A stretch of DNA of 64,000 nt from Eledone cirrhosa (Eukaryota), in the NCBI GenBank assembly GCA_964016885.1, contig OZ024741.1, forward strand, positions 108,748,001 to 108,812,000, read 5' to 3'. Both the position numbers and the translations under genes were made by a program. The first letter of the stretch is position 1. The number at the start of each line of letters is the position of its first letter. Shown piece by piece: positions 2,061 through 25,512 of the stretch. Under the pieces are notes generated by a model. That model had not been told where the DNA came from, ran no database searches, and worked only from the letters and a program-made list of their open reading frames with translations.

Positions 2061-2508
2061 TGTGTGTTTCTAAATATATTGTTAATAACTCCCTCTGGTC
2101 GAGCAATCTTTGAAGTGTGGGTACAGCTGGAAAGCTTCCATTACTCATACTTCTCGCCTTCTTCACCACCTCTTCTGCGGCCTCGATATAAATACCCCCT
2201 CCGCCTCCGTGGTATTTTCTTCGAGGTTATAAGAGGCTTAGCTCTGTTTCTCGACCGTTATATCGCGTGACTATCTCCCCCTCCGCCTTTTGGGATTCTT
2301 TCTCACGTCGTGTAGACGCGTTCTTGAGACTAGTAAAATGAGGTATCCTCTTGATAAGTCGGCAGACCTCGCAAGGACTCTATATCTTTATGATATATTG
2401 TTTTTGTTTATGCCACGAAACTACGTAGTCGAGGAATTTAGGAGCAGTTTGGTATGATACATTTTATTACTAATTATATCTAAATGTTTCTTCTCTCTTC
2501 ATAATGTA
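2061..2508 (+). mobile_element. Solo partial copy of the 595-bp HHR repeat family (see 23923-25512); U3:A8 HHR at 2346-2435
   Basis: Near-identical to 24303-24750; tcctc-TTGATAA...GAAA-ctacgtag-TC-gagga; (TA)n flanks. Confidence 0.9.
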
Positions 2509-4116
2509 TATATATATATATATATATATATATATATATATAATCTCAAAAAAGAAGACTAGACGAAGACTTTGGATATAATTCAAAATAGGATAACGTC
2601 AATAGAAAAAACAACAATAAGAAATCACCACGCTTTAGGTCGTCCGTCTTTCTATTTTTTTTGTCCAGTTTCTCTGTCTTGTGCACCCCCAATTTTGAAT
2701 TTATATCCAAAGTCTTAGACGTGCGTGCATCTTTTGAAATTTTCCTATTATTGATTTCACACCGCCCGGTCTGTCTTCCTCTATTCTCCCGTCTTACTTT
2801 TTCTACACTTCAATGTCATCATTCTCTGCCTGCACATTGGACTACATTCCTTATTCTTCTCTTTTGTTTTACTCTTTTTTCTCCTTTTGGCTCAGTCCTT
2901 CGCACTGTTCTCTCCTTTGTTATTTGACGCACTCTCTTCTATATTTGTGTAATTCACCTATTGTTCCAATATGCATTGGAATGAAAGGTTTCAATCTTTG
3001 ATATACTGAAACCGTAGTGAATACCAGAGGTTAACTGGAGAAATGGGACAGTCCCTCTTTCCCGTGTTTTTTTCTTTCTTTTTTTCATTGTCTTTGGCCT
3101 GTGTGCCCCTTATTTTGAATATATATATATATATATATATATATATATATATATATATATATAATAATAATAATATTATTTATACTTATATATACACTAT
3201 ATATATAATTATAAACAGTTAAGGTCAGTAACAGTAGATGCGACAAAGATTATAAAAGAATAATACAACAATTAAAGAAGAAAGTTACTCGCAAAATGAG
3301 GAAATTTATATAAGAGAGAACGAGAGAGAGAGGGTGAAAAGAAAGAGAACCAGAGAGAAAGAGATAGAGAGAGAATGGAGAAGATTCGCCAATAACAATT
3401 CTGCCATATTTATGAGTGATAAAATTGTCAGAACCTATTTGGTGTAATCTATCGGCCGCTCGTCTGATAAGTAATAATTGATTTGACACCTTTAGTAGGA
3501 ACACCTTTTCCTCGGTCTTAGGCCATATTTGGAAATGTCATCTACATACGTAATATATATATTTAATATATATATATATATATATATATATGTATATATA
3601 TATGTGTGTGTGTGTGTGTGTGTGTGTGTGTGTGTGTGTGTGTGTGTGTGTGTGTGTGTGTGTGTGTGTGTGTGTGCGCGTGTGCGTGTTCCTGTGCATT
3701 AACTTCTCGAAACTATGTTCGTTATAACAATAATTTCCATAAATCTTTCGCTGTTCCTTATTCTGATTTTATGGATGAAATGTTTTTTGGCCTGTATATT
3801 GTAAGTAATAAATATAGAAACTTTTACTCATTTCCTCATTGGATATTACTGGACTTTAAATGTTTTGACCGTTGGCGCTATCTTTCTATATGCAAGCAGG
3901 AAATAGTTCGAAAGAAATGTATTATTTTAATTTGATAGATTGCAACATTATATCCATAGCGAGTTTGTGACATATTGTTTTTACTTAGGCACCTTTCATA
4001 ACTAATGTTCTATTAATATTTATTTAATTATTACGCGATTTCCATTTTCTATACATTACTTATGACTTCACTTCAATATAGCTTTATTTGCGTCACATCA
4101 TAGGGTTATAGCCATT

Positions 4117-4317
4117 TACGTTCTGAGTTCAAATCCCGCCGTCGATAGCCTTGCCTTTCATCCTTACGGAGTCGATAAATGAAGCACCATTAATGCACTG
4201 CGGTTGATTTAATCGACTTCCCCATCCATTGGCAGTATCGGTAGAGCGTCGGAGAACATGCTTCGCAGCATAGTGTTACGGCCTTTGCGTTCTGATTTCA
4301 AATTCCGCTGAGGTTAG
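4117..4317 (+). mobile_element. Two partial tRNA-derived SINE copies (octopus-type)
   Basis: B box gagttcaaatcccgcc; core gcctttcatccttacggagtcgataaat; A box tggcagtatcggtaga. Confidence 0.8.
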
Positions 4318-4334
4318 AGATGTCGTAGCCTCAG

Positions 4335-5215
4335 TGCATGTCGGCGCATCATTAGCCACGGCATTCCCGGTCCTCCACTGAGGGACTGTTGACAGCAGAT
4401 GGACCGCCTGACCATCGGAACGCGTCCTTTCCACAAGAATTGGACGAGCAAACACTCCAGTGCAGTCATATGGGGTTTGTGACAAGGCACGACAGTCAAT
4501 CAGTAGTAGATGACGGATGCGGTAAATATGTTCGCCTTCTCTGCCCTACCTTTCATGGACATGTTTCTTTCGGCCGATTTTGGGGTGAGATTGGGCACTT
4601 TGTCCGTCACACCTCATCCCATTTTCTGTCCACCTGGAGATCAGGACTAAAGCAGACCCCGAGTAATTTAACCAGCCCGTCTGTCCAGCGCCCGACGACA
4701 CCGTTTGACTGCTTGGGCCTGCCCCTCCATGTGCCTACAGATTTTTCCTGGTTGATTTTCACTCATGTCAGCGCTTCGTATTCATTTACAGCAGAACAAT
4801 CACCTCAATGTGATTGGCGTTCAACACTACGACTGTGAGGTCGTCGGCATAAGCCGACACAGATCTTCCAAGTCCTTGTTCACGCAGAAGGCCTCTCAAC
4901 ACCACTAATTTGTGTAGCAGTGGCTCGAGAATCAATACATGCAACAAGGACGAGAGGGGACAGCCCTGGCAGACAGAACGTATGACGTTGAATGGTTCCG
5001 AGAGGTGACCGTTCAATCTGACCACAAAGCAGATGTCACTATGCATAGCAGCTATCTATCCTCTGAAAACCGACCCACAAATCTGCTGCTTTGAGGACCG
5101 CCAGCAAGTACCGATGGTCGACTCTATCAAATGCTTTGGATTGTTCCAAGTTGATTAGAGCCCTACCCGTGCCAGGTTCTTTACCCACTCTCTCTATGAT
5201 GTATCGCATGACAAC
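4335..5215 (-). pseudogene. Tx1/L1-clade LINE reverse transcriptase remnant; possible upstream part to ~5800
   Basis: ALINLEQSKAFDRVDHRYL, SVCQGCPLS, AYADD, FLWKGRVPMVRRSICCQ; homologous to 53205-55735. Confidence 0.9.
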
Positions 5216-23400: not shown

Positions 23401-23472
23401 TCTCTCTCTCACTCTCTCTCTCTCTCTCTCTCTCTCTATATATATATATATATATATATATATATATATATA

Positions 23473-23825
23473 TTAGAAAGTGAGGTTTTTTTTATAAAAT
23501 GAAAAATAACCGAGGTGTCCTACACGAGTGAAAGTATAAAGAAAAAAAGATGAAATCGAAAATGCAACTGGAGTCTTATTTTGTTTTAAAATATATATAT
23601 TTATTTGGTTCCTTTACCGGTTTCGCAGTTCTTCTGCTTTTCAAAAGTAGAGTTGAGATGGAGGGTCTGTGGTTTTTCTCACATCTGTGTGAGAAAAACC
23701 ACAGACCCTCCATCTCAACTCTACTTTTGAAAAGCAGAAGAACTGCGAAACCGGTAAAGGAACCAAATAAATATATATATTTTAAAACAAAATAAGACTC
23801 CAGTTGCATTTTCGATTTCATCTTT
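23473..23825 (-). mobile_element. Solo fold-back pLTR (family of 11848-14064): tail 23473-23540, near-perfect palindrome ~23546-23825; HHRs 23612-23647 (-) and 23724-23759 (+)
   Basis: Mirror-image ORFs on both strands in the ORF track; same U3:A8 HHR. Confidence 0.92.
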
Positions 23826-23922
23826 CTCTCTCTCTCTCTCTCTCTCTCTCTATATATATATATATATATATATATATATATATATATATATATATATATA
23901 TATATATATATATATATATATA

Positions 23923-25512
23923 CATTATGAAGAGAGATGAAACATTTAGATATAATTAGTAATAAAATATATCATACCTAAACTGCTCCTAAATTCCTCG
24001 ACTACGTAGTTTCGTGGCATAAACAAAAACAATATATCATAAAGATATAGAGTCCTTGCGAGGTCTGCCGACTTATCAAGAGGATACCTCATTTTACTAG
24101 TCTCAAGAACGCGTCTACACGACGTGAGAAAGAATCCCAAAAGGCGGAGGGGGAGATAGTCACGCGATATAACGGTCGAGAAACAGAGCTAAGCCTCCTA
24201 TAACCCCGAAGAAAATACCACGGAGGCGGAGGGGGTATTTATATCGAGGCCACAGTTGGGTGCGGATGCATTCATGTATATATGTGTGTGTCCGCATGTA
24301 TCTGTGTGTTTCTAAATATATTGTTAATAACTCCCTCTGGTCGAGCAATCTTTGAAGTGTGGGGACAGCTGGAAAGCTTCCATTACTCATACTTCTCGCC
24401 TTCTTCACCACCTCTTCTACGGCCTCGATATAAATACCCCCTCCGCCTCCGTGGTATTTTCTTCGGGGTTATAGGAGGCTTAGCTCTGTTTCTCGACCGT
24501 TATATCGCGTGACTATCTCCCCCTCCGCCTTTTGGGATTCTTTCTCACGTCGTGTAGACGCGTTCTTGAGACTAGTAAAATGAGGTATCCTCTTGATAAG
24601 TCGGCAGACCTCGCAAGGACTCTATATCTTTATGATATATTGTTTTTGTTTATGCCACGAAACTACGTAGTCGAGGAATTTAGGAGCAGTTTAGGTATGA
24701 TACATTTTATTACTAATTATATCTAAATGTTTCTTCTCTCTTCATAATGTATTTTTAACTCTGATACTGGTTCAGTCTAGTTCAACTGAATTGGTCTGTC
24801 CCAGTCATTCATTGAGCAACATCGGTGAAGTTGGCACCCTTAACTCACAGTTGGGTGCGGATGCATTCATGTATATATGTGTGTGTCCGCATGTATCTGT
24901 GTGTTTCTAAATATATTGTTAATAACTCCCTCTGGTCGAGCAATCTTTGAAGTGTGGGGACAGCTGGAAAGCTTCCATTACTCATACTTCTCGCCTTCTT
25001 CACCACCTCTTCTACGGCCTCGATATAAATACCCCCTCCGCCTCCGTGGTATTTTCTTCGGGGTTATAGGAGGCTTAGCTCTGTTTCTCGACCGTTATAT
25101 CGCGTGACTATCTCCCCCTCCGCCTTTTGGGATTCTTTCTCACGTCGTGTAGACGCGTTCTTGAGACTAGTAAAATGAGGTATCCTCTTGATAAGTCGGC
25201 AGACCTCGCAAGGACTCTATATCTTTATGATATATTGTTTTTGTTTATGCCACGAAACTACGTAGTCGAGGAATTTAGGAGCAGTTTAGGTATGATACAT
25301 TTTATTACTAATTATATCTAAATGTTTCTTCTCTCTTCATAATGTATTTTTAACTCTGATACTGGTTCAGTCTAGTTCAACTGAATTGGTCTGTCCCAGT
25401 CATTCATTGAGCAACATCGGTGAAGTTGGCACCCTTAACTCACAGTTGGGTGCGGATGCATTCATGTATATATGTGTGTGTCCGCATGTATCTGTGTGTT
25501 TCTAAATATATT
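23923..25512 (+). mobile_element. Young retrozyme-like array: inverted arm (23923-24251) plus ~2.1 tandem 595-bp units; U3:A8 HHRs at 23995-24084 (-), 24588-24677 (+), 25183-25272 (+)
   Basis: Identical ORFs 595 bp apart; tcctc-TTGATAA-gtcggca...tgccac-GAAA-ctacgtag-TC-gagga; (TA)n flanks. Confidence 0.93.

Follow-up and report, generated by a model that had tools for sequence, protein, structure and literature searches.

Hammerhead ribozymes carry a C3-G8 Watson-Crick pair in their active fold (PMC3884650), and the 2′-OH of G8 is the proposed general acid (PMC6155905; further hammerhead literature in PMC6765202). In the hammerhead of a Penelope-like element (PLE), single changes at position 3 or 8 abolish cleavage, while the double change partly rescues it (Frangieh 2024). 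Natural covariation to U3 and A8 has been reported (Perreault 2011, PMC3088659), and in the Cercyon PLEs of Schistosoma mansoni, U3-A8 hammerheads that a first C3-G8 descriptor had missed gave ~1,300 extra matches against ~2,000 (Cervera & de la Peña 2014, PMC4209133). Among 44 rows of a published alignment, 41 are C3:G8, two are U3:A8, and one, from Saccoglossus, is U3·G8 (PMC4209133). Here we analyzed a 64,000-nt stretch of the Eledone cirrhosa genome (contig OZ024741.1, positions 108,748,001 to 108,812,000; hereafter the window, to which all positions below refer), an AT-rich, animal-type DNA with many (TA)n tracts and with short repeats in inverted or tandem order. Motifs of hammerhead shape that have U3 and A8 occur there in four families, labeled A (595 bp), B (320 bp), C (the 11848 family), and D (the 18812 family, decayed). 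Our joint reading, to which we give a probability of roughly 0.65, is that these are type I hammerheads of PLEs whose 3-8 pair is under purifying selection, and that the swap to U3:A8 took place once or twice and was then inherited.

Several described systems come close to these families. Cercyon and A–D have in common U3-A8, the heptamers UUGAUAA and UUGAAAA, the type I topology, and a place in PLE repeats, but in Cercyon helix III measures 2 nt and A9 is followed by an extra base, whereas helix III here is a 6–12-nt palindrome and the extra base is absent (PMC4209133). The U3/A8 hammerheads of Perreault 2011 (PMC3088659) are not tied to PLE repeats in the consulted part of that paper. The pseudo-long terminal repeats (pLTRs) of Neptune and Nematis elements share with the Eledone families the partial tandems, the inverted 5′ copy, an optional tail, and (TA)n targets, and these elements share with the open reading frame (ORF) of family C a CX2-5CxxC linker and a GIY-YIG endonuclease with CCHH (Craig 2021, PMC8557442); Penelope and Poseidon are without the linker, which in family C reads Cx4CxxC. 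That survey used canonical and relaxed descriptors plus the string cuganga, and all Hydra and Chlamys rows of its File S2 have C3 and G8. Non-LTR (long terminal repeat) retrozymes, which have been proposed to be PLE derivatives, are likewise built of short tandem units that are non-coding and contain a type I hammerhead (Cervera & de la Peña 2020, PMC7229834; Li 2026 preprint), but they measure ~170–400 nt and often form long arrays, while A and D measure 595 and 460 bp and the arrays here hold 1–2.2 units. No paper describing families A–D was found in the open-access literature, and they are probably new family members, their core variant and their host class both being known already.

U3:A8 hammerheads and the repeats that carry them

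The 14 motifs comprise four copies of A, three of B, six of C, and the single decayed D, and each of them has both U3 and A8 together with the GAAA and UH parts of the core. Family A, with the heptamer UUGAUAA, occupies 2346..2435 (+), 23995..24084 (−), 24588..24677 (+), and 25183..25272 (+), with U3 at 2351, 24079, 24593, and 25188, respectively. The first copy has a 59-nt branched stem II, a 10-nt palindromic helix III, and a predicted cut after C2430; the second is an inverted, 5′-truncated copy, and the last two belong to units 1 and 2 of a tandem. Family B, also with UUGAUAA, lies at 17288..17331 (−; U3 at 17327, a 4-bp stem II, and a 12-nt palindromic helix III), 17742..17786 (+; U3 at 17746), and 18064..18107 (+; U3 at 18068, with a damaged helix I and U17). 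Family C has UUGAAAA and was found at 11925..11961 (−; U3 at 11958) within an inverted repeat on the left side of a PLE remnant, at 13881..13917 (+; U3 at 13884, damaged in stem II) in the 3′ repeat of the same remnant, and in two back-to-back pairs at 19029..19169 (U3 at −19062 and +19136, 4-bp helix I) and 23611..23760 (U3 at −23644 and +23727). An earlier, sequence-only reading had placed the U3:A8 core at these sites between 2346 and 25272, which are the outer helix I ends of the first and last A copies, and the motifs are indeed there.

In A, B, and C, helix I measures 3–5 bp, helix II is closed by G10.1-C11.1, the ribozyme is open at helix I, helix III is perfectly palindromic, and the cleavage site is GUC or GUA. 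The minimum-energy cofold of two copies is the double-hammerhead pairing for A and B, and cofolding gains 5.9–13.7 kcal/mol. Motif D (18815..18840, +; UUGAUAA with U3 at 18815 and a near-palindromic helix III) was classed as a decayed relative or relic rather than a member, because its stem II is only GC and its broken helix I has 1 bp. It looks like a C- or B-type motif from which the interior of stem II has been deleted. When D is cofolded, the GC pairs of stem II form between the two copies. Engineered dimeric minizymes resemble this inter-copy pairing; a deletion is nevertheless more likely than a minizyme-like design, since helix I is also broken.

Families A–C are type I, dimer-dependent hammerheads in the pLTRs of PLEs and in short non-coding derivatives of these elements. 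The repeats of family C flank the broken 3′ end of a PLE ORF (12263..13080, +), in which a reverse transcriptase (RT) thumb region, the linker, and the C-terminal GIY-YIG endonuclease are readable through in-frame stops and frameshifts, the RT core being gone through 5′ truncation. Relatives of this ORF, one of them a named one from mussel, carry PF26215 and PF01541, and a Pfam search of its pieces gave no direct match (one of seven window proteins matched, an unrelated RT). Judged by its remnant protein, the family C PLE classifies as Neptune/Nematis-type under the definitions of Craig 2021.

Family A forms a partial tandem at 24251..25512 (+; 2.1 × 595 bp, 100% identical over 667 bp) that ends on (TA)n, beside an inverted copy at 23920-24251, a pLTR-type layout in which no ORF was seen. 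Family B forms a partial tandem at 17535..18248 (+; 2.2 × 321 bp) with an inverted copy at 17121-17485, and D consists of a single unit of 460 bp and a repeat of 81 bp, flanked by (TA)n tracts (18375..18915, +). Partial tandems, inverted 5′ copies, and (TA)n targets are the marks of the hammerhead repeats, two consecutive units each bearing a hammerhead in A and B and one in D. A, B, and D could equally be non-LTR retrozymes or truncated PLE ends. The idea that they are Naiad ends whose U:A ribozymes had been overlooked found no support when the supplement of Craig 2021 was searched with four 8–9-nt motifs (11 matches, the five to the three U:A-core motifs lying outside a hammerhead context), a weak test given wrapped lines and few motifs. 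An nhmmer search of the window returned no further ribozyme-bearing copies of A–D, only fragments at 59064 and 18375. The C insertions at 19101 and 23688 invert at nearly the same place, 64–72 nt before the cleavage site, and these inversions form perfect hairpins that match Rfam microRNA (miRNA) models below threshold.

Motifs were counted with a structure scan of both strands that left positions 3 and 8 free (cut-off score ≥20), the score having been written after the motifs had been seen. The 28 matches were 12 U:A, 12 C:G, and four others (U/U twice, A/A, and A/G), with no C/A or U/G among them; motif D fails the scan. Thirty local dinucleotide shuffles gave 2.23 matches per window (0.30 U:A and 0.07 C:G), about the number of the four others, and the reversed window gave three, one of them U:A. 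Strict descriptors were set aside, as many C:G motifs with damage escaped them and the U:A share came out too high (11 U:A versus 4 C:G at ≥20), and the scan with free positions was preferred for this reason. That the U:A motifs are chance matches in AT-rich DNA and no ribozymes at all would suit the 66 matches to UUGANAA on the two strands and a score designed in hindsight, but 12 U:A matches in three families against 0.30 per shuffle, the double-hammerhead cofolds, and the position in PLE repeats make it highly improbable. Chance is largely excluded for A–C; for position 3 of D, the register of which is uncertain, it is possible.

The 3-8 pair within and between families

Positions 3 and 8 form C:G or U:A in 24 of the 28 scan matches at ≥20, a pattern in keeping with, and in support of, purifying selection on the known pairing of these two positions. 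Collapsed by hand, the real matches make three U:A and nine C:G families, and Fisher's test gives p = 0.0045 if these are all independent, 0.011 for two origins versus 12, and 0.077 for a single origin. An alignment of 13 motifs, in which two B and two C copies are included, pairs at 3:8 in 13 of 13 rows, and none of 500 shuffles scored as high, in a control that ignores kinship; only this pair was counted, because MAFFT aligned the cores alone.

A wider list, curated by hand and started from a search in which position 3 could be C or U and position 8 could be G or A, holds 37 motifs in 18 families: 14 U:A, 22 C:G, and one C3/A8 (+41049). The latter, at 76% identity to its family, is old and is without G12 as well. 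With four of 18 families, U:A is a minority. The prediction that searches fixed on CUGANGA undercount hammerheads is sound, as 14 of the 37 curated motifs and four of the 18 families would be missed; this practical point had already been published.

It had also been stated that no copy carries only one of the two changes. This is true in 14 of 14 motifs and has no evidential power. Substitution events per site amount to 0.006 (A), 0.097 (B), and 0.051 (C), so that only 0.31 changes at position 3 or 8 are expected within families and the probability of seeing none is 0.73. A first divergence estimate of 1.23 expected events had been inflated by low-complexity columns and was replaced by this one. 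Genomic copies would escape selection after insertion, and the informative level is the family, not the copy.

The swap keeps the pair, which argues for purifying selection and not for a better catalyst; what is kept across families is the 3-8 Watson-Crick pair. In the B copy at +17746, a C-G pair of stem II became U-A, a compensatory change that points to selection on structure. This change is also at odds with the view that the U:A motifs are dead relics, in which cleavage is no longer needed and both changes drifted in, for which the decay of D and the transposition of a PLE without hammerhead cleavage in vitro (Frangieh 2024) could be cited. Family A is very young (one substitution in 155 columns) with a perfect core, the core of A, B, and C is otherwise intact, and some copies end at cleavage sites, and we regard such drift as improbable.

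Origin of the swap and possible traces of cleavage

By local alignment of the repeat units, the flanks of A–D are unalignable in all six pairs, the best matches being AT-rich low-complexity sequence, and the families that had been called unrelated are so in their flanks. Their ribozymes are not clearly so. Between U3 and C15.2, the B and C hammerheads agree in 20 of 25 positions; both have a stem of 4 bp and a loop of 5 nt, and one of their differences is a compensatory pair. A C:G motif of equal length matches B and C at 15 and 11 of 25. A9 directly before G10.1, with C11.1-GAAAC (C15.2), is found in four of four U:A families versus one of 14 C:G families (p = 0.0016, post hoc; in row I of this flank table the wrong GAAA was taken, its class being unaffected). 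Unalignable flanks are no proof of independence, because the C:G families E and L have similar ribozymes without flank similarity (z = 4.9).

Three or four independent swaps from C3:G8, with the shared G10.1-C11.1/C15.2 as a permissive context for the weaker U:A pair, would agree with the unalignable flanks and the strongly different stem II of A. The swap has also arisen elsewhere, a U3:A8 row of S. mansoni being closely like a C3:G8 row of S. japonicum (PMC4209133), and the title of a 2007 paper makes tolerance depend on surrounding elements. Against this stand the B–C identity, the likeness of D to C, the case of E and L, and the Schistosoma U:A rows, which, in the alignment consulted, differ from ours in being without that flank context (PMC4209133). 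We consider several swaps rather unlikely; from these comparisons, the probability of one or two inherited swaps appears no lower than that of three or four. The independent recurrence proposed by the sequence-only reading is not upheld, given p = 0.077 with one origin and the resemblance of the U:A ribozymes to each other. If the swap did arise several times, the families would be a countable natural experiment in the compensatory evolution of a ribozyme active site.

Under the joint reading, the palindromic helix III would let two copies in a tandem transcript pair as a double hammerhead, which, from its predicted fold, may cleave after GUC or GUA. The 3-8 Watson-Crick pair would position the 2′-OH of residue 8 as general acid, a single change at 3 or 8 would break it, and C3U with G8A would restore it. 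The route may have led through C3U and then G8A, via a U3·G8 wobble intermediate. Both steps would be GC-to-AT transitions, the direction that appears favored here, with 34 GC-to-AT changes per 237 sites versus 29 AT-to-GC per 449 among majority-polarized substitutions in four repeat families. Purifying selection on the mobilized RNA would permit either C:G or U:A. The swap would most likely have occurred once or twice in a PLE lineage whose linked ORF is probably of the Neptune/Nematis type, and the U:A ribozyme may have been inherited while its flanks diverged beyond recognition.

A hammerhead with U:A is slower than one with C:G. The swap might have been positively favored as a slower switch, by which the 3′ ribozyme escapes cutting at a frequency sufficient for RT read-through and the upstream one cuts, and most copies do hold an uncut ribozyme while two start at the cut site. 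This is doubtful at best, for C:G families are the majority in the window (nine versus three in the scan) and also insert with uncut ribozymes, and mutation bias offers a neutral route.

Two of the 13 5′ ends of A–D copies lie at the predicted cleavage site, and the other 11 elsewhere. A fragment of family C (59064..59204, +), outside the interval of the sequence-only reading, begins where cleavage is predicted, its 5′ end mapping to position 17 and its junction carrying a single additional A. In the D element, the 5′ end (18375) maps to position 16.1, at most 2 nt from the predicted site, and the ribozyme follows after one unit of 460 bp. The chance of two such ends in 13 is ~0.01 by a hand estimate made post hoc (5 nt in ~460), and microhomology with the (TA)n target is available at either junction. 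These ends are a hint of cleavage in vivo. It is conceivable, if speculative, that a whole Neptune-type PLE sublineage runs on U3:A8 hammerheads and that its insertions record cleavage in vivo, U:A making up roughly one in four of the window's hammerhead families. If true, this would make it possible to test from genome sequence alone whether cutting by PLE hammerheads takes place during retrotransposition, and 5′ ends piling up at the cleavage site genome-wide would mean that the ribozymes act in the transposition cycle.

A number of observations weigh against the joint reading. Common descent rests on ~25 nt, because the flanks of A–D are unalignable; ~11 of these are constrained anyway, and A differs by a stem II of 59 nt. 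The only one of the four families with a linked ORF is C. The family C cofold forms helix II and the shared helix III, and its helix I is inter-strand or lost. Taken by itself, family C runs opposite to the mutation bias (2 versus 8). In the anole PLE, cleavage is dispensable in vitro and RNA-seq reads ending at the site are absent (Frangieh 2024, as far as consulted); the hint from the 5′ ends runs counter to this, the one direct study consulted. Neither U:A nor C:G motifs had an Rfam match at the gathering score, and hammerheads are absent among the 150 listed of the 292 weak Rfam matches. An A3/G8 scan match at −28209 scores 27.3, where shuffles give 0.03 matches per window at ≥24; we classed it as AT-rich noise without proof.

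C3:G8 hammerheads and other repeats in the window

The interval that yielded the U3:A8 families also contains C3:G8 hammerheads (14850..21760) at −14938, +15504, +16112, −16641, +16866, and −21712, which the sequence-only reading does not mention. The copies at −14938 and +15504 form one family with an 8-bp stem II, a 4-bp helix I, and a U4C change in both (CCGAUGA), by which it likewise escapes CUGANGA searches; CCGAUGA recurs at −45061, in a decayed partner of +45074. At −21712, stem II is 99 nt long, helix I counts 9 bp, and position 17 is G. This hammerhead belongs, as does that at +33644, to two Hydra-type PLE remnants (21535-23400, −, and 31450-33740, +; in narrower limits 21700-23400 and 31450-32700) with a CxCx5C-type linker. 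Young inverted pairs with C3:G8 hammerheads lie at 917-1238, 43764-44153, and 37545-38651, the copy at +1141 being without G5.

Some repeats are hammerhead-like only in part. One keeps only a hammerhead-like 3′ half (25502-25749, 26654-26905, 34253-34429, and 58856-59063), and its copies appear to invert or end within stem II, which leaves positions 3 and 8 unreadable. Another (1691-1836 and 61837-61929) has a hammerhead-like CAGAAGA...GAAA, with A at position 4 in both copies. The weak Rfam matches, as far as the 150 listed of 292 go, are hairpins and microsatellites, nearly all to miRNA models.

ORF pieces at 47700-48750 (+) and 27485-27889 (+), without a Pfam match, resemble a DNA-transposase remnant and the end of a Helitron/PIF1-like helicase. 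A 200-base assembly gap (N run) lies at 29402-29601. Broken non-LTR retrotransposons of the LINE (long interspersed nuclear element) type at 53200-55515 (+) and 4317-5210 (−) are ~70% identical to each other, with a weak RVT_1 match at 53618-53959. Finally, an abundant short interspersed repeat, often in tandem and with the look of a SINE (short interspersed nuclear element), is present at 50730-52830, 56342-56722, 60073-60346, 63233-63440, and 4090-4316.

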